Positions 4,880-32,717 of a stretch of DNA of 32,717 nucleotides are shown piece after piece. A program made the position numbers and the translations under genes. The stretch is from the NCBI GenBank assembly GCA_030167865.1, contig JALAGF010002306.1, positions 62,001 to 94,717 on the forward strand. The letters are read 5' to 3'. Under the pieces are notes generated by a model, which worked only from the letters and a program-made list of their open reading frames with translations, was not told the DNA's origin and made no database searches. Each line of letters opens with the position of its first letter. The first letter of the stretch is position 1. Source of the stretch: Craspedostauros australis. Its lineage: Eukaryota.

Positions 4880-5500
4880 TGTCGACACAGCCGGCAGCCT
4901 CTGGCGTTCAGAACATCGATGTCAGCGCCGCAGCAATCGACCAAAAACTTGACATTTTGAGGTGGCCCTCGTTGGTCGCACAGTAAAGCGCAATGTGGCC
5001 ATGTTTGCGTGCAGATTTCGTTGACTGATATCCGCTTTCGCTGATTCTATCAACCAATGCACGATATTGCTGTAGCCAAGAATGCTTGCAAGATGTCGTA
5101 AAGTGTTATGATTACGGCCTTTGGCGTTCAAATCCAAATTGGGAGCTGCAATCAGACACTTGACTACGTCGAAATGATTGTGGAAATATGCTCTGAAGAT
5201 TGGGCCTCATGCCCGCAGTTCTCGACGTTGACGTTGACCTTGCCAGATTCAACCAGGTGCAATGCAATGCAGTCTCTCCATCCATGGATTCAGCGTTGAT
5301 GTCTGCCCCATACAACTCCATCAACTGTTTGATCGTTTCGAGCTGACCGTTGGAACACGCGATGGAGGGGAGTCTTGCCACGCTCGTCTTTGATCGTGTC
5401 GATGGAGGTATGTGGAAATGCTGTCTTCCATGCATTGAGGGTATCCGCACCTTCTTGTTCCTCGACATGTAGGAGACCCTTACAAGTAATCCTTGGCTCG
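4880..5500 (-). pseudogene. Frameshifted ankyrin-repeat pseudogene
   Basis: Ankyrin-like fragments are spread over different minus-strand frames: IACSNGQLETIKQLMELYGADINAESMDGETALH; HNHFDVVKCLIAAPNLDLNAKGRNHNTLRHLASILGYSNIVHWLIESAKADI; ALYCATNEGHLK; VKFLVDCCGADIDVLNARG. No continuous ORF and no splice sites that I could find to repair it. Boundaries are approximate. Confidence 0.8.
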
Positions 5501-8420: not shown

Positions 8421-11400
8421 CTAATCCCATTCGCCTTCGGCTGCATACATCGGAAATCGCATGGTCTCGATTTCATCATTCTCGTTGCAATCAATGCCAT
8501 TCCACTCACAAACGCTCTTGTCTGGATCCGTCTGCTGCTCCGACTTCAATTCAATGACTTCGTAGTATATAGCCAAGATATCCTCTTCCGTCAGTTTGAT
8601 GCATTCATGACTTCCCAAATACATAGTCGTGAATCCTGCCTCACATGGTTTGCAACCATCGGAGTGTGTAGCGTGTCCGGAATCGGAGTACGTTCCCAGC
8701 GGGCAGATGACCCCGTCACAGCCGTACATGCGGGTCAGACCGCTGTTAATGTTGGTGTTGGTACAAAGAGTAGATGGGATAGGATCGTATATCATGTTGC
8801 CGCCCAACCGGAAGTCCTTGAGCGATTGCGAGCTGCTGAACGACGCAGGTATAGTCCCGTGGATACGGTTGGCTGATATGTCGAACCACGACAAGAACGG
8901 CAGATGGCCGAAGCTGAATGGAATCGTCCCTGTGAGCTTGTTCATCTTGAGATGTAGGATTTGGAGAGACTGGAGCGTCGCCAGAGAATTTGGAATGCTC
9001 CCAACAAGGTCGTTGTTGAACAAGTCTATCCGTCCCAGAGGACGCCATCGGGTTGGGAAGGGTTTGACGTGGCACAGTGCGTTGCGATCAACACAGTGTG
9101 CAAATGCAGGTTGTACCGGAATGGGTAGAAACGAGCGCACAGGTATCAGAAAGTGAAAGGAATCATCGCTGGTGAGCAATTGCGAACTGGACGTTGTCAT
9201 CATAGCCAGTGACAGTGAGCAAACATCGCCAACGCGGCACATCATTGCGCCGGCGGCATGCAGCGCATCCAACAGAGTAATCGCCAGTCAAAGGACTCAC
9301 CCACTCGCTTGAGATTCGCACATCTGTACAGCGTCGACGGGATACTGCCGGTGAGTTGATTGCCGTACAGCTCGAGGTTCTCCAAAGACATCATGTGTCC
9401 GATCTGACTTGGGATGTTGCCAGTAAGCCGCATTCTTGACAGCATGAGTTCCTTCAGGTGTGTCATAGTTTGGATGCTGGTGGGGATGCTCCCCGACAGC
9501 GGGTTCGTGCTCAGATGTAGCTTTTCCAATCCCGTCATGGCGAACAGCTCCGATGGCACGGAGCCGCTCAATCGGCAACCCGCGAAGCTAAGGTACCTCA
9601 ATGTCGACACCTTGCTAAGTTCCGACGGGATGTTGCCCTTCATGCTCTGACAGCCGGACATGTCGAGATACCTTAACCGGGACATCGCGCCCAGTTCGGT
9701 GGGGATCGTGCCCTGCATGAACTGCCTCTTCTTCAGGATGATCACTTCCAGATTCGAAATTTGCGCGATTTCCGCTGGAAGTCCGAGACAATCCTTCGCG
9801 TCGTCGGAGTCCCGCCCGCTGACGCCACAGACAGCCGCTTCCGACAGATCGATCTGGACGATGCTGCCGTACATGGTGAGGACGCCGTACAATTCTGCAG
9901 ATGGGGTCTTGAGGTTGGCCCACTCTTTGAATGATGTGCCCCATTCCTCTCCTGCGTTGTTGACGTACAGGAGGTTGAGAATTTCACGGTCGCTGAGCTT
10001 GCCATCGCCATTCAGATCGCCGTACTTGAAGCTCACACCCTCGCACGATGTTCGACCCAGTACCTTTTGGAGCACCGTGTCAGTTTCGTTGTCTGTGCGT
10101 TCCACCTCGCTTTTTGGCGTCGGACATCGTCTGCAACTGGATTGCAGCGTCGCGGCGCCGAGTGGGTGAAAGTGGAGGGGCGGACAGAGGACGCTGTGAC
10201 AACCGAATCGCTTGTATAGCAGGGAGTCTTCCTTCGCCACTCTCAAGCAGAATCTGTCGGGGACGATGCCGGTGAGGACGTTCGCGGTCAAGTTTGCGCT
10301 GGTGAGGCTGGATAGTTGATTCAACTGGATTGGTAACCTACCGGTGAGCTGATTGCTGCTCAGATCAAGAATTTTCAGGACGGAGAGGCTTCCCACCTGC
10401 GCCGGTATGGTTCCCGTCAATTCGTTATGCGACAAGCCCAGTTGCTCGACGCATGAACCCAGGCCGAAGAAGAATTCCGGCGGTATGGTGCCCTGGATAT
10501 TGTTGTCATCTATTTGGAACGATCTCAGCTCCGTCATGTCGGCCCATTTGCCGCCTGATGGCGCGTCGGTGCGTATTCTGCCGATGCCAGGGAGGATGTC
10601 ATCGCCTCTCGGGATGATGCCAGCGATCTTGTTGTGGCTGACATCGAACACTCTGAGTTTGGAGAGCTTGACGATGCTTGAGGGTATGCTTCCCTGGAGT
10701 CTGTTGCCGCCGAGTCTGATTTCCTTGACGAACTCGAGCCTCATCCATGACCGAGGTATGGATCCGGAGAAGTAGTTGTTGCTGAGATCGATCGTCTCGA
10801 TATTCTCCATCATGCGCATTTGCTTCGGCAGAGTTCCTGTGATGGAGTTGTCCTGAAAATTGAGATGCTTGAGCCTCTTCGAGGCTGGTCCGTAATCGTT
10901 CGAGATGGTTCCCACGATGCTGTTAAACGACGCGTCGAAGGAGGTCAGAGTAGGCATCGTCGACAGGTTCGGCACCGTCCCGCCAATCTTGTTTCGGGAG
11001 ATGTCAATAGTCTTGATTTTCTGGAGATCCAACAGAGACTCCGGTATCGTGCCGGACAGCTTGTTGTTCCGCAGGACCAGCGTTTGCAGGTTGTTGAGCT
11101 CTCCGATTTCCTCCGGTATCGTCCCTTTCAACTCATTTTCTGGAGTTTGTGCGGGGTGAGGATGGATGATTGCGCAAGCGCGGGAGGTGTGTAGAGTGTT
11201 GATACGTGGAGTACAGAAAGCGAATGAGTTTAATGGATGGATGGAATGGCCGCAAGATGCTTTCATTCGTAGAGGAAGCGCAACCACTGCAGCTGCGGCG
11301 GCACATTCGCGAATGGACGCAGATGCAAACGTAGCAATGGGGATGTCCTTGGTCTTGGCATGTGAACGAGCAGCCAAGTGAACACCAGTACACATTTCAC

Positions 11401-12069
11401 AAATGCATTGATCCGTGGATGCGTATTTCTGCATTGCTGGACAAACGCAGGCACGCATGAACACACGCATGCATCCACGCAGCAACAAGCATGCGATGCA
11501 AACTCACCACCCAGCATGATCGTTTGCATGCTGCGCAGAGACCCGATCCAGGTGCTGATCGTCCCTGTGTAGCCGATCGCATCCCACCGAATACTGTTGG
11601 CGTTGCCATTGCTGTTGCAGGCGATGCCCTCCCACCGACAAACGTCCACATCCGACCAACCATCGACGATTTCGTAGAACAGATCCGCGTCCTCTTCCGG
11701 AAAGCCGGACGATTCAAACTTGAGACCGCATCGCACGGCCATGAGGCTGACGCTTTCGCGCCACATTTTGGTCTCGAGGAAATGCGCGACCTCCCCCGCG
11801 ACGGCGGACGGTCCCAACTGCATGAAGTATCGCGGGACGTTGGGGACCTCCAGGACTTCTTCGGTTCCCGTCGGACTGAACTGCAGGAGGACCGTGTCGC
11901 CGTCATCATCCGCTTGTTCGAAGTAGCCGAACGCATCGTGGTCGATGCTGGGCGTCTGCTGGTTGGTGCGCTGCTTCCGCTTGGATTTCCGCACGTACGG
12001 GTTGTTGGCGGTTGCCACCAACAGCAGCAGCGGCAGCAGCTGGATTCGCAGAGCACGATGTCGGTTCAT
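8421..12069 (-). CDS. Secreted leucine-rich-repeat protein (plant-receptor-type LRRs), ~1001 aa, 3 exons
   Basis: Exons 12069-11508, 11139-9301 and 9025-8421. GT-AG introns are phase-consistent and give IMLG/ENELKG and KRV/DLFNN. Signal peptide MNRHRALRIQLLPLLLLVATA, LRRNT cap VCRWEGIAC, many LxLxxNxLxGxIP repeats and two Cys-rich linkers. No transmembrane or kinase domain seen. Confidence 0.88.
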
Positions 12070-27862: not shown

Positions 27863-30008
27863 ATGTTCAACCGACCAACCAACATCGTTCAGGGCCAGAA
27901 CACCATGGCCACCAACAACAACTCTCGCCGCGGAGCCTTCCGTGTGAGTGTCCACAACAGCGCAAAAACGATGCAACCATGGATCAAGTCAAAGTCAACG
28001 CCCAGCCAAGCAGTTGGAAGAGCAACGACAATGACATTGTGTACAAAACGATGCCTGAACTTGACCTGGATGAATGCAACCAGTGGAAGGAACACAAGCA
28101 GACAGGAAACAATCAGCCGCACGTGACGACCACTGCTATTGACGACAGCTCGATGACGATGACGATGAAAACGATGATGATCATGCGCAGTGGAACAAAG
28201 AGAGGCAGTGAACCAGGGAAGCAACAGAAATTACGATGGCAGTACAGCAGCACAGCACAACAGCGGAGTGGCATGCCCATGGAACAAATCGAAGCAACGC
28301 GATGACATTGGACGAGGCAGGCAATTGCCACTGCTGAAGTGATACCGAGCAACAATGCATCACATCATCAGGGCAATGCCAGTGAACATCCAAATCACCG
28401 ACAACGCGAACGATACTGTTGCATTCTTCCAGCTCCGCGCACAACAACAGATGCAGAAAAAACGCCAGCAATCGCACTCCACTTCACACAAGATCATTAT
28501 CATCGTCGTCATCGCAATCATCGCAAACATCATCACAGCTTGTCAACGAGGGCAACCACTTGGAGCATGGTTTCAACAATTGTCTTGTTGACGCAAACAG
28601 CGATTTCTCACGCATTCCACTTCTCTGCTTTTCATCCATCAACCTTTTTTCCATCTTCACCACTCTTTCGCACAACAGGACTTGACCAATGCCAACCGCA
28701 CAGTCCAACAGGGAGGAAAGCCAGGCGATGGCAGCGTCCTTCCAGAGAAGCGTGGTGCCCGTCACGATTTCGTGCCAACTCGTCAGGGATCCTTCCAGAC
28801 TCAGCACCAGCAGCCAGCATATGTCGTCGAGCAGCGTGACCCAGCCAACTTCAACATCATGCCTGTTGCCGAGACCCGCCAGCAGTTCATGCAGACCACG
28901 ACCGCGCCAACCATGCAGACCCAAGCCGGTGTCGTTCCAAACCCAACCAGCTACCAGTTCACTGGTCATGCTGACAACATCGATGAGCGCGATGCCGAGG
29001 ATCCATTGTGCGCCACCGACTACGTGCAGGACATGTACGAGCACTTCCGCGTGAAGGAGACCAGCACATCAGTCCGCCCATTGTACATGGAGAGCCAGCC
29101 ACACATCAACGAGCGCATGCGTGCCATCCTCGTTGACTGGCTCATCGAGGTCCACCTCAAGTTCAAGCTCGTCCCAGAGACCTTGTACCTCACCATCAAC
29201 CTCATCGATCGCTACCTCGAGCGCAAGGAAGTGTCGCGCCCAAAGCTCCAGCTTGTCGGAGTCACATCCCTCCTCATCGCATCCAAGTACGAGGAGATCT
29301 TTCCTCCGGAGCTCCGTGACCTCGTCTACATCTGCGACCGCGCCTACACACGCGCTGAGGTGAGTCCGAACACACGAGCAACATGCTCGCGCTGACTACT
29401 TTGCTGCTGCTGCTGGCTGCGACAATGCACCACTCGTGCGGTTTCGCGCCGTGGCGCACTGTGCCAATTATCAAGCATTCAAACTCACACATCGCATCTT
29501 CTTCGCACATACACACTCTGTCTCTCCCTCTCTGCACGCACACATGTGCTCAAACGAAATCAAACGAAATCGACCGCAAATCAACCACTTTCAGATCATC
29601 GAGATGGAAGAGAACATCCTCAAGACCCTTGAGTACGACATCACCATCCCAAGCGCCCACGCCTTCCTCGTCCGATACTTGAAGGCGGCCCATGCAGACA
29701 AGCGAATCGTGCAGCTTTCCTGCTACATCCTCGACGGCACCCTCCAGAGCTTCAACTTGCTCCACTACCTCCCAAGCCAGTTGGCAGCCGCAGCTGTCTA
29801 CGTGGCCCGCAGAACTGTGGGACGCAACTCCTGGAGCCCAACCCTCCTGAAGTACGCCGGGTACTGCGAGGAGGAGATCACGCCAGTGGCGCGCGCCGTC
29901 CTGGCGGAGAAGCGATCCTCTTCGCAGGAGCTCCGCGCTGTTGGTAAGAAGTACTCCAGCAGCCGGTACGGTGGTGTTGCCACCATCTCCATCGGCTGTG
30001 ACTTCTAA
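27863..30008 (+). CDS. CYCB1: Mitotic B-type cyclin, ~391 aa, 3 exons
   Basis: Exons 27863-27943, 28679-29359 and 29595-30008, with phase-0 GT-AG introns. Splicing creates the destruction box RGAFRDLTN. Cyclin box MRAILVDWLIEVHLKF (HxKF, B-type), LIASKYEE and EMEENILKTL. Confidence 0.9.
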
Positions 30009-31086
30009 ACGATCACAATATGACCGGGGTAACGTGTGATGTGGTCCGGCGAGGCAACACACACACACAGGCATATTCGAACACATTCGAACACAAGCAC
30101 GAATACAATTCCGTTCACCCCGAAGGTCGATTGGCGAAGAGATCGACGGGCACGGCGACCAGACAGCCCAACACACACACTCACAGGCAGCGCAACGACA
30201 AACGACGCGCCGACGGCCATCATCCACGCGACGAGCAGCCAGACAATCATGAACACAATGAGTGTTAACAGCGGCCCAGTCTCCAGATCGGCAACACGAC
30301 GAAGCCTCAGCAACAGTCAGGTGACTCTTTGGAAGAGCATCATGCACGCATGCAGGCGAATTAACCAGATCGCGACAACAAGAAGAACAGCGACAACAAC
30401 AACAACAGCAACAACGACAACCACAGTCGTGCGCCGTCATCACAAATCATTGTCACAATCAGACAAACGATGACACGAGGCGACGAAGCGGGGCTCATTT
30501 GCTTGACCCTCGCTAATCGACGCCGTCCAGCACTGCATTGGCGCCACAGAAGCAGCCGACAGCGCAGTTTGTGCACAACAATGACGACCATCGAGGGATC
30601 GCCATCAGCACACGCAGACAAGACACTAGCGACAGTTTTTAGCAGGCAGATGAATCGATCGAGATGAATGGTGCATTCGATGGACACAATTGGCTTTCGA
30701 ATGTAAGGATGGACAGAGCCTTGTTTCGTCTTCTTACCTTCACCGATTGAGCGAATCTGAATACAATACAACCATCGCACAATAACAACGAACTAAGAAC
30801 AACAATATTATCAAAAACATCGAGCATCGTTGATACCAGATACACCACCGTACAACGAATAGATACGGGATGCATAGAATCTGCAATGTGTGGACTGGTG
30901 TGAGAAAGTGTGGGAAGCCTAACTCTTCGTCTTTACTTCTATCCTCGACGTTCCGTTCGAAGCAGATGGTGATCGTTGCAGTGCAGTGACCCTTTGTCTC
31001 AGCATTTCATCGGTTTCAATGGTGACAAGCATGGAGTTCTTGTACATCATCCATTGGCTCCATCGAATGCTTGGTTCGCTTCTTCC

Positions 31087-31431
31087 TCAATTCCTTGACG
31101 AGTTGATGATCGTCGCGACCACCCCTGCGATGCCGCCGTCTCCCATGTTCGCTAGAACGAAGAAGTTGAATGCGATCAGCCCAAATCCGATCGCGGTCAG
31201 GCTAACGCTGTCCACGTCGTCGACGAGATCCACGCGAACCTTCTCGGGCTGCTTTTCCGGCATCTTCCGGCTTCGATCGATCTCATCCTCCGAGTATCCC
31301 AATGATCGCAACCGATCCTTGTCCTCCTCCTCAAGCCGCAACGACGACGAGGGTCTTTGGAATGCCGACGGCGTCACGAATGCGTTGCAAGAGGCGACTG
31401 CCAAGCACAAGAAAATCAGGACTGCCTTCAT
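31087..31431 (-). CDS. Small plastid-targeted membrane protein of unknown function (114 aa)
   Basis: ATG at 31431. Signal peptide MKAVLIFLCLAVASCNA-FVTP (ASAF-like), short S/R transit peptide, charged middle region and a C-terminal hydrophobic segment SLTAIGFGLIAFNFFVLAN. Confidence 0.8.
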   Translation of the reverse strand: MKAVLIFLCLAVASCNAFVTPSAFQRPSSSLRLEEEDKDRLRSLGYSEDEIDRSRKMPEKQPEKVRVDLVDDVDSVSLTAIGFGLIAFNFFVLANMGDGGIAGVVATIINSSRN

Positions 31432-31700
31432 CGTCACAGTAGTGTAGTATCGTATGGTATATACAAATCAGTATTTTTAATGTGGTCGTAGTTGTTATTG
31501 TCGTTCAACAGGTGTACGGGAAGGTAGGTTCCTCGAGAGACGGACAGAGAGAATGACAAGAATAACAATGATGATGATGACAGGCGAAGGAGTGAAAGGT
31601 TGGATGATGTCAATGGAGGGAGATGTTCGTGTCCTGCTTGTGTCTGGGGTGTCGTGCGTGTCTCTTGTGCGTTGAATGTTGAATCGTCCAAGATTTGGCG

Positions 31701-31718
31701 CGAGATGACGTCATCTCG
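31701..31718. promoter_or_regulatory. Perfect 18-bp palindrome centred on TGACGTCA (candidate bZIP site)
   Basis: cgagatgacgtcatctcg is its own reverse complement. It lies between the divergent starts at 31431 and 32031. Confidence 0.4.
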
Positions 31719-32030
31719 TCGCGAATATATAGTCGAATGAGTCGATCGACGCAACGGTGTCAACACACAAAGAGAGAGAAAGAGAAGACCATGCGACCAA
31801 GACAACAGCACACACCACTCAACCCCCTACTCGAACACGCCAACAACAGACATCGAATTGCCACTCAGGCTCATCACACAGCGAATAGTAATCATCCTAA
31901 TGCAAGCTATTGAAGACACACCATCGACATCTCTGCCATAGGTAGCTCCAACTACACACTTCCTCGACAGCCAATCCAACACCAATCGTCCAACACCAAT
32001 CGTCCAGCAACCATCGACCATCCTCTCAAA

Positions 32031-32717
32031 ATGCCGATTGTTACAAACGATGAACTCATTATTGCAGCCAGGGCAGGTGACTTGTTGGTGTTGAAGGAAT
32101 GGAAGAAGCAGAACAAGATGCAGAATGAAGGAGTTGATGTCAACATGGTTACAGACTGGGTTGGTCGGACTCCCCTTCATCTGGCATGCTACAACGGCCA
32201 CCTGGAGTGTGTCAAGTACCTCATCGAATCATGTGAGGCGGACATCAACTGCAAAGACAACGGTGGTGACACTCCCCTTCATGATGCATGCTACAACGGC
32301 CACCTGGAGTGTGTCAAGTACCTCGTCGAATCATGTGAGGCGGACATCAACTGCAAAAGCAACCATGGTTCCACTCCCCTTCATCGGGCATGCTCCAACA
32401 GCCACCTGGAGTGTGTGAAGTACCTCATCGAATCATGTGAGGCGAATATCAACTGCCAAGACAGCGATGGTTGGACTCCCCTTCATGTGGCATGCCACAA
32501 AGGCCAGCTGGTGTGTGTGGAGTACCTCATCAAATCATGTGGGGCCGACGTCAACTGCAAAGCCAACAGTGGTTGGACTCCCCTTCATGACGCATGCTGC
32601 AACGGCCACCTGGAGTGTATGGAGTCCCTCATCAGAGGACTTTCGCCTTCAGTTCACCCACAACTGCAACAACTGCAGCAACGCTTACAACAAAACGAGC
32701 AAGAGAATAAGCAGCCA
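32031..32717 (+). CDS. Ankyrin-repeat protein, 5' part, open to the window end
   Basis: Manual translation from ATG 32031 gives 229 codons with no stop: MPIVTNDELIIAARAGDL...GRTPLHLACYNGHLECVKYLIESCEADINCKDNGGDTPLH..., five TPLH repeats, then a Q-rich coiled-coil-like stretch. Missing from the ORF track because it has no stop within the window. Confidence 0.92.
   Translation, partial: MPIVTNDELIIAARAGDLLVLKEWKKQNKMQNEGVDVNMVTDWVGRTPLHLACYNGHLECVKYLIESCEADINCKDNGGDTPLHDACYNGHLECVKYLVESCEADINCKSNHGSTPLHRACSNSHLECVKYLIESCEANINCQDSDGWTPLHVACHKGQLVCVEYLIKSCGADVNCKANSGWTPLHDACCNGHLECMESLIRGLSPSVHPQLQQLQQRLQQNEQENKQP
32169..32635 (+). repeat. 102-bp tandem coding repeat, about 4.5 copies (34-aa ankyrin unit)
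   Basis: ACTCCCCTTCAT recurs at 32169, 32271, 32373, 32475 and 32577, an exact 102-bp period. Confidence 0.95.

Follow-up and report, generated by a model that had tools for sequence, protein, structure and literature searches.

The NOD-like receptors (NLRs) of fungi and the ankyrin expansions of viruses and symbionts are well-known cases of a fixed ankyrin scaffold which carries a variable face. In ankyrin repeats the tips of the hairpins and the inner helix together form the concave face on which the target is bound. For the designed ankyrin repeat proteins (DARPins) the positions randomised by Binz et al. in 2003 were reportedly 2, 3, 5, 13, 14, and 33. To our knowledge little is established about the recognition of viruses, parasites, and bacteria by diatoms.

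The closest described phenomenon to the gene treated here is the highly conserved repeats of fungal NLRs. The part of the work of Dyrka et al. (2014, PMC4986451) drawn upon here describes the ANK, TPR, and WD repeats of these receptors as highly conserved, polymorphic in repeat number, and positively selected at sites of the inner helix and of the hairpin; high conservation is defined there by an internal amino-acid identity of more than 85% along 100 or more amino acids of repeats. The nearest precedent in stramenopiles is provided by the LRR-ROCO and NB-ARC-TPR families of Ectocarpus. In the literature searched, which extended to Craspedostauros, no diatom ankyrin family of a hypervariable kind was found to be described. 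The word "ankyrin" is absent from the main text of the Seminavis genome paper, and two papers on other diatoms mention ankyrin expansions or regulation, in the parts considered here, in passing only.

The gene lies at the end of a stretch of 32,717 nucleotides of Craspedostauros australis (assembly GCA_030167865.1, contig JALAGF010002306.1, positions 62,001 to 94,717), which is called the window in the following. A first-pass annotation had pointed out an ankyrin array with hypervariable codons on the binding surface and had likened it to DARPins and to immune receptors. According to the analysis presented here this is probably a small, intron-free nuclear diatom gene for a stand-alone ankyrin protein, probably located in the cytosol, which belongs to a large, lineage-restricted, probably transcribed multigene family with diversified binding faces.

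The ankyrin reading frame, its ends, and its neighbours

From an ATG at position 32031 of the forward strand a reading frame of 229 codons, encoding 229 amino acids, runs without a stop to the end of the window at 32717. This reading frame (32031..32717) contains no intron and is open at its 3' end. The stop-to-stop frame in which it lies begins only at 31914, and therefore no domain is fused upstream in the ankyrin frame. Joints within contigs of the public sequencing run X1 were also listed, and none of them is located upstream of 32036.

The product is composed of an N-terminal cap, four full ankyrin repeats of 34 amino acids (102 bp), a repeat which forms the C-terminal cap, and a Q-rich tail. 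When the register of the units is set on the TPLH motifs, they start at 32160, 32262, 32364, 32466, and 32568 with a spacing of exactly 102 nt, and Tandem Repeats Finder reports a repeat at 32162-32633 with a period of 102, 4.6 copies, and 84% matches. All parts are on the forward strand. The start codon and the N-terminal capping repeat (amino acids 1-43) occupy 32031..32159, and alignment to three protein fragments from the databases, P0125, P0332, and P0260, marks this cap as specific to the family. It is followed by the repeats R1 (32160..32261, supported also by Pfam, with model helices at amino acids 48-54 and 58-68), R2 (32262..32363, 90% identical to R1 in DNA), R3 (32364..32465), and R4 (32466..32567), each of 34 codons. 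R4 is the most divergent of the full units and carries the framework replacements K12, Q14, V16, E19, K23, G26, and V29. The C-terminal cap R5 (32568..32636, model helices at 184-190 and 194-203) keeps to the pattern of the unit over 23 codons before it gives way to a tail rich in Q, E, and N (32637..32717, amino acids 203-229), which is predicted to be helical (model helix 209-225) and is cut by the end of the window.

Five ankyrin models of Pfam (Ank, Ank_2, Ank_3, Ank_4, and Ank_5) match above their own curated cut-offs and place the protein in the ankyrin superfamily, among them Ank_2 with E=2.7e-82 and 271.9 bits (cut-off 27.3) and Ank with 185.2 bits (cut-off 21.1). A degenerate DNA form of the framework motif matches four times in the window and not once in each of 100 shuffles, so the repeat array is not a product of chance. 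By inspection the 229 residues contain neither a start resembling a signal peptide nor a membrane segment, and the protein is probably cytosolic or nuclear. Four cysteines per unit (unit codons 10, 17, 25, and 31; 32160-32567, forward strand) are invariant in all full units and in the three named relatives. They occupy positions which in the ankyrin consensus are held by small hydrophobic residues (Ala, Ile/Val, Gly, and Ala), and filling of the core, metal binding, or redox sensing may be their role.

In front of the start codon a probable 5' untranslated region extends over 31775..32030 on the forward strand. The depth of X1 contigs rises from 0.48 in the bin 31584-31774 to 97.9 in the bin 31775-31965, which suggests a transcript start at this border. 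The putative untranslated region contains an upstream reading frame of 14 codons in another frame (31900-31941, forward strand). It also contains a 14-bp tandem repeat of 3.3 copies (31975-32020, forward strand, found by Tandem Repeats Finder), which ends 10 nt 5' of the ATG; a loose end of X1 contigs before 31987 suggests that the number of these 14-bp repeats differs between paralogues.

The 3' end of the gene bears on the idea, raised in part by the first-pass annotation, that the array is the N-terminal sensor module of a larger receptor (NLR-like, ROCO-like, or an ankyrin kinase) with an effector domain located beyond the Q-rich linker and hence beyond the end of the window. The still open reading frame would be compatible with such a continuation, and so would two of the three loose ends of X1 contigs listed behind 32694-32708 (37 further X1 loose ends are outside this listing), which stay open over another 7-10 codons rich in Q, E, N, and K. 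The third one, however, which belongs to a close paralogue, reaches a TAG at the eighth codon behind 32703 when read in the frame of the gene, and this tells against an attached effector. R5 has the form of a C-terminal cap and is succeeded by low-complexity Q/E/N sequence. The protein starts with its N-cap, with an in-frame stop just upstream, and no NOD domain precedes it, while the sensor repeats of NLRs are described as normally located C-terminal to the NOD (PMC4986451, in the part considered here). No match to NACHT or NB-ARC was obtained in the 74 reading frames of at least 130 amino acids in the window, which leaves the repeats without the central nucleotide-binding domain that precedes them in NLRs, and neither the proposed immune receptor nor an NLR, kinase, or ROCO domain finds support. 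The three named relatives are short fragments which start at the same methionine.

A search for longer proteins gave 7669 of 8000 scored candidates with E<=1e-3. Many long proteins with Roc/COR or NACHT domains are found among the best 120 of these matches and might be taken to favour a receptor, yet all of the best 120 are generic multi-ankyrin proteins with 32-54% identity, a level which is uninformative on the missing end of the gene. A larger receptor is thus quite improbable. The shape of R5 as a C-terminal cap, the missing upstream domain, and the TAG of the paralogue together argue for an ankyrin-only product. The window most likely carries the first approximately 95% of the gene, and the protein, judged from the sequence, would have a length of about 230-250 amino acids.

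The neighbouring genes are of an ordinary nuclear kind, as in a photosynthetic eukaryote, and comprise an Ofd1-type 2OG oxygenase, a large LRR protein, a peroxiredoxin, a violaxanthin de-epoxidase (VDE), a protein kinase, a glyoxalase, an MBOAT acyltransferase, and a cyclin. In the cyclin gene (28592-30005, forward strand; Cyclin_N E=7.9e-42, Cyclin_C E=1.1e-27) the N- and C-terminal domains are found in two separate frames with a split at about 29364-29392, which indicates a short intron; no X1 contigs map to this gene. Two adjoining LRR frames of 288 and 753 amino acids on the reverse strand (8424-11503; LRR_1 E=1.5e-46, LRR_8 E=2e-33) probably constitute one gene for a single large LRR protein with an intron or a frame change at about 9245-9287. 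This gene is a second repeat-type recognition module at a distance of about 20 kb from the ankyrin gene. A small divergent reading frame of 116 amino acids with a hydrophobic start resembling a signal peptide is present on the reverse strand (31087-31437), and X1 contigs cover 30244-31532 with 0 differences. Between this frame and the ankyrin gene there is a gap of about 240 bp in the depth of X1 (31584-31774), which looks like a shared bidirectional promoter. An ACA-rich microsatellite with 3.1 copies of an 18-bp unit is located at 30372-30426, and the X1 contigs break there.

A second ankyrin-like stretch on the reverse strand (about 4915-5403) has 26-55% protein identity to the array. It was rejected as a member of the 34-amino-acid family due to this low identity and to its distribution over three frames, for which introns or decay may account. 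When the array was compared with the window by blastn, only the array itself and weak matches at 5295-5392 were returned. Mutagenesis by a diversity-generating retroelement was also considered and rejected, as no reverse transcriptase was found among the 74 reading frames and no template copy in this blastn comparison.

Structure and variation of the repeat units

The best matches among solved structures are ankyrin-1 and designed ankyrin repeat proteins, to which the array aligns along its whole length (DARPin chain 5lec, E=9.9e-119). The alignment to ankyrin-1 and to the DARPin chains shows that every unit has its 34th residue inserted between helix 2 and the loop behind it. A single-sequence AlphaFold2 model of moderate confidence at best (mean pLDDT 67, pTM 0.64; the other four models 34-39; N-cap below 50) was used for the positions of the helices alone. 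In this model helix 1 comprises codons 5-11 and helix 2 codons 15-25 of each unit, and the two helices are paired in all five units, from 48-54/58-68 to 184-190/194-203. The helix-turn-helix plus hairpin/loop arrangement of the ankyrin superfamily is thereby found in the product, at the mean pLDDT of 67 given above.

The codons which vary most are located in two parts of this structure. Codons 1 and 3 are in the beta-hairpin/loop before helix 1, and codons 8, 11, and to a lesser extent 12 are on helix 1. The location of the variable codons in the hairpin and in helix 1 had already been proposed by the first-pass annotation and is borne out by the alignment, the entropy, and the model. Its lists of residues before TPLH (R, D, S, W, W), after TPLH (L, D, R, V, D), after AC (Y, Y, S, H, C), and in the hairpin (DNG, SNH, DSD, ANS) proved to be accurate throughout. 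Its identification of the variable positions with those randomised in DARPins applies to codons 1, 3, 11, and 12, whose counterparts in the alignment vary from one DARPin module to another, and does not extend to codon 8, which aligns with a fixed leucine. Codons 1, 3, 11, and 12 presumably correspond to positions 3, 5, 13, and 14 of the DARPin library.

Pairs of units are 79-90% identical in DNA and 53-85% identical in amino acids, the value of 85% being reached by the pair R1/R2 alone. The five 102-bp units which had been described as nearly identical in DNA are consequently correct as to their spacing, with four full units and a fifth one of 23 codons, and overstated as to their identity. 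The high internal conservation which had been read as typical of fungal NLR repeats, where more than 85% is asked for (PMC4986451, in the part considered here), is not found.

The differences between the units are mostly replacements. Among R1-R4, 18 codon columns contain replacements versus two columns (codons 18 and 27) with silent changes only, in agreement with the very few synonymous differences noticed before. Codons 1, 3, 8, and 11 have eight first and second positions, and all of these are variable and account for at least 12 changes, versus 5 of the 30 third positions of the framework which vary (Fisher p=2.6e-5). Summed over the six pairs of R1-R4, pN is 0.66 and pS 0.21 at codons 1, 3, 8, and 11, values which are to be read with the repeat pairs being non-independent and the silent sites few (17 summed at the variable codons). 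In the remaining 30 framework codons pN is 0.103 and pS 0.088, yielding a pN/pS of about 1.16.

With these counts the reading of the gene as one of a face-diversified family can be weighed against its main rival, which is relaxed constraint without diversifying selection. The genes would then be recent duplicates of an ordinary ankyrin adaptor, in which surface sites not needed for the fold drift faster and no repertoire has a function. The framework favours this explanation. Its pN/pS is slightly above one, and variation is no less frequent at its first and second positions than at its third ones (12/60 versus 5/30, p=0.78). No strong purifying selection on the framework is visible between the units, and this counts against a clean "frozen scaffold"; the whole array may be under relaxed constraint instead of consisting of a fixed scaffold plus a selected face. 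An amino-acid identity between units of only 53-85% points in the same direction, and a conserved scaffold with a variable surface is a pattern intrinsic to ankyrin repeats. Neutral drift predicts, however, that replacement divergence at free sites approaches silent divergence, whereas the pN at codons 1, 3, 8, and 11 exceeds the pS of the framework seven-fold. The at least 12 changes are concentrated in 8 columns versus 5 changes in 30, and among the common variants across the paralogue contigs 35 of 38 are replacements. Drift as the whole explanation is therefore considered rather unlikely.

The silent sites carry a further signal. Leucine is encoded by CTT in all five units at codon 6, by CTG in all five at codon 15, and by CTC in all five at codon 21, and threonine at codon 4 is encoded by ACT in all five. 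Elsewhere in the window, over six other genes, 6% of the leucine codons are CTT and 9% of the threonine codons are ACT. Since each position of the unit keeps its own codon, rare ones included, the likeness at silent sites stems from descent or conversion. Codon bias was ruled out as its source by these position-specific codons, among them the rare CTT and ACT. The "homogenised" framework of the first-pass annotation is supported to this extent by the silent identity through descent or conversion, and it is weakened by the seven framework replacements of R4 and by the framework pN/pS.

A family of close copies

The entropy per position was calculated over 11 repeats, from the window and from the three named fragments. 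Codons 1, 3, 8, and 11 have values of 3.28, 2.04, 2.91, and 3.10 bits, codon 12 has 1.87 bits, and no other codon exceeds 1.55 bits. The same codons stand out among the paralogues which are seen in the sequencing run X1. This run contains 47% of the sampled words of 30700-32717. Contigs with 0 differences cover 30244-30374, 30430-30817, and 30896-31532, and one is found at 32516-32629, and these exact matches indicate an identical or almost identical organism as the source of X1. The ankyrin array itself is matched by 691 of 30,610 contigs, with identities of 88-100%: 127 at 99% or more, 204 at 95-99%, 288 at 90-95%, and 72 below 90%. The contigs are about 100 nt long and come from a single run, and 187 of the 691 fit two places. 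Differences of 5-10% are beyond sequencing error and point to many paralogous copies of the repeat type. The family may comprise tens of genes by estimate, contigs of about 100 nt being too short for a count.

Inside the reading frame 38 variant letters are common in X1. Three of them are silent and 35 are replacements (P=0.024 versus 21.5% silent sites), and 25 of the 38 lie in unit codons 1, 3, 8, and 11, that is, in 12 of 102 nt (binomial P=7e-15). The ankyrin gene is thus not a one-off but one of many close copies in the diatom, and this is what is new about it. A recent solitary duplication, which the first-pass annotation had linked to a lack of paralogues, does not agree with the 691 contigs on the array, their variants at the same codons, and the excess of replacements. 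In several X1 contigs parts of the array which are not adjacent are joined, the net distance skipped being 102 or 204 nt, and in one contig the joint goes backward by a net 204 nt. These joints fit copies with other numbers of units or with reassorted units, and they may equally stem from a look-alike unit, as contigs of about 100 nt cannot separate it from a missing one.

The depth of X1 is zero over the cyclin gene, drops to the minimum described above in front of the ankyrin gene, and is unequal on the two sides of that bin. This pattern resembles a transcriptome and makes transcription of the family probable, with the nature of X1 as RNA being itself a guess. Two other runs, X2 and X3, contributed 0 contigs, which does not prove absence there.

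The protein databases, searched over 1.84 billion representatives, contain only three specific relatives, all of them fragments named MMETSP1442, which denotes one diatom transcriptome. P0125 (138 amino acids) is 71% identical and has a name starting with "Craspedostau"; P0332 has 114 and P0260 has 58 amino acids. All three share the N-cap from the first methionine onwards and the same cysteine-containing framework. Their end-to-end alignment with the ankyrin protein has 24 invariant columns in residues 1-58, 19 of which are within amino acids 1-43. When amino acids 1-56 were used as query, only these three aligned from residue 1 to residue 56 among the best 150 of 2988 matches, the rest of the 150 being generic multi-ankyrin proteins. 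A search for near proteins gave 6635 of 8000 candidates, and among the 120 listed only P0125 exceeds 55% identity. A word search with the N-cap alone (amino acids 1-46) yielded no candidate. The degenerate DNA form of the framework motif had 0 matches in the contig collections of metagenomes, viruses, and prokaryote genomes, a search which relatives with differing frameworks would escape, and a looser pattern of the motif also had 0 matches in the metagenome contigs. On present data the family, as judged by these searches, looks restricted to one diatom lineage.

This distribution bears on a further explanation, namely that the protein functions in silica biogenesis and is related to the dAnk proteins of diatoms, by which the machinery of the silica deposition vesicle is organised from the cytosolic side. 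The dAnk1-3 proteins, with the identifiers Tp23225, Tp5147, and Tp21058, are described as cytosolic ankyrin-repeat proteins without targeting signals, two of them widespread in diatoms (PMC9894196, in the part considered here), and for another pennate diatom an up-regulation of ankyrin genes during frustule formation is mentioned (PMC11151724, likewise in part), which would suit such a function. But dAnk2 and dAnk3 are given as nearly ubiquitous among diatoms (PMC9894196), whereas the present family occurs in one named transcriptome among all representatives searched, and its framework motif was not met in the three contig collections. Moreover, tens of paralogues whose binding faces diverge would not be expected from a conserved role in morphogenesis. 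A role in silica formation is accordingly regarded as highly improbable.

Possible origin of the family and comparison with known systems

In the favoured reading, a face-diversified multigene family, the members would share one DNA framework through recent duplication, gene conversion, or both, and would differ chiefly at the four to five codons per repeat (1, 3, 8, 11, and less so 12) which lie on the putative target-binding face. Each paralogue would be a protein binder with a specificity of its own, binding and targets alike being presumed from the fold. The set may have arisen by duplication of units and of genes. Exchange between the copies would have kept their scaffolds similar, while amino-acid changes on the binding face would have been selected for or at least tolerated. 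Alternatively, conversion might homogenise the scaffold while selection preserves an old diversity of faces.

A more specific proposal is that the germline of the diatom encodes tens of small, cytosolic, stand-alone "natural DARPins" as a repertoire, that selection and the exchange of units between paralogues maintain the diversity of their faces, and that they serve to recognise changing biotic targets inside the cell such as viruses, parasites, or bacterial effectors. This is held to be unlikely. If it were true, the diatom would possess a binder library resembling innate immunity without an attached NOD or signalling domain. More generally the family offers concrete candidates for recognition of this kind, or a diversified set of regulatory adaptors, in a benthic diatom lineage, and its interest rests on its size, on its apparent transcription, and on its diatom host.

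The family can be compared with four known systems. With the fungal NLR repeats (PMC4986451, in the part considered here) it shares units of 33-34 amino acids which are similar in DNA, variability in the inner helix and in the hairpin/loop, and the organisation as a multigene family. The joints of X1 contigs in which a net 102 or 204 nt is skipped would be compatible with differences in unit number between copies as well. It differs from them in being ankyrin-only without NACHT or NB-ARC, in the identity of its units, which stays at 53-85% versus the criterion of more than 85%, and in its occurrence in a diatom instead of a fungus. The ankyrin gene is therefore like the sensor domains of fungal NLRs in where the variation lies, but it is no member of them.

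The resemblance to DARPins consists in the succession of N-cap, internal repeats, and C-cap, in a protein of about 200 amino acids, and in the partial agreement of the variable codons 1, 3, 11, and 12. In contrast to DARPins the diatom protein is natural and has a 34-amino-acid unit with an extra residue, four conserved cysteines per unit, and a Q-rich tail. As its hypervariable codon 8 corresponds to an invariable leucine of DARPins, the match to the designed library is a partial one.

The candidate receptors of the LRR-ROCO and NB-ARC-TPR type in Ectocarpus, as described in the part of PMC3341825 considered here, likewise form a stramenopile multigene family with fast-evolving repeats and a proposed role in recognition. 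They are, however, built from LRR or TPR repeats together with signalling domains and are shuffled as exons, whereas the ankyrin units are contained in one uninterrupted reading frame in which no signalling domain was found. The dAnk1-3 proteins are similar in being cytosolic ankyrin-repeat proteins of diatoms without any other recognisable domain. Compared by description alone (PMC9894196, in the part considered here), dAnk2 and dAnk3 are diatom-wide and act in the patterning of silica pores, while the present family appears lineage-restricted, multi-copy, and variable. Taken together, the ankyrin family extends the known theme of a common scaffold with a variable face to a diatom instead of opening a new one.
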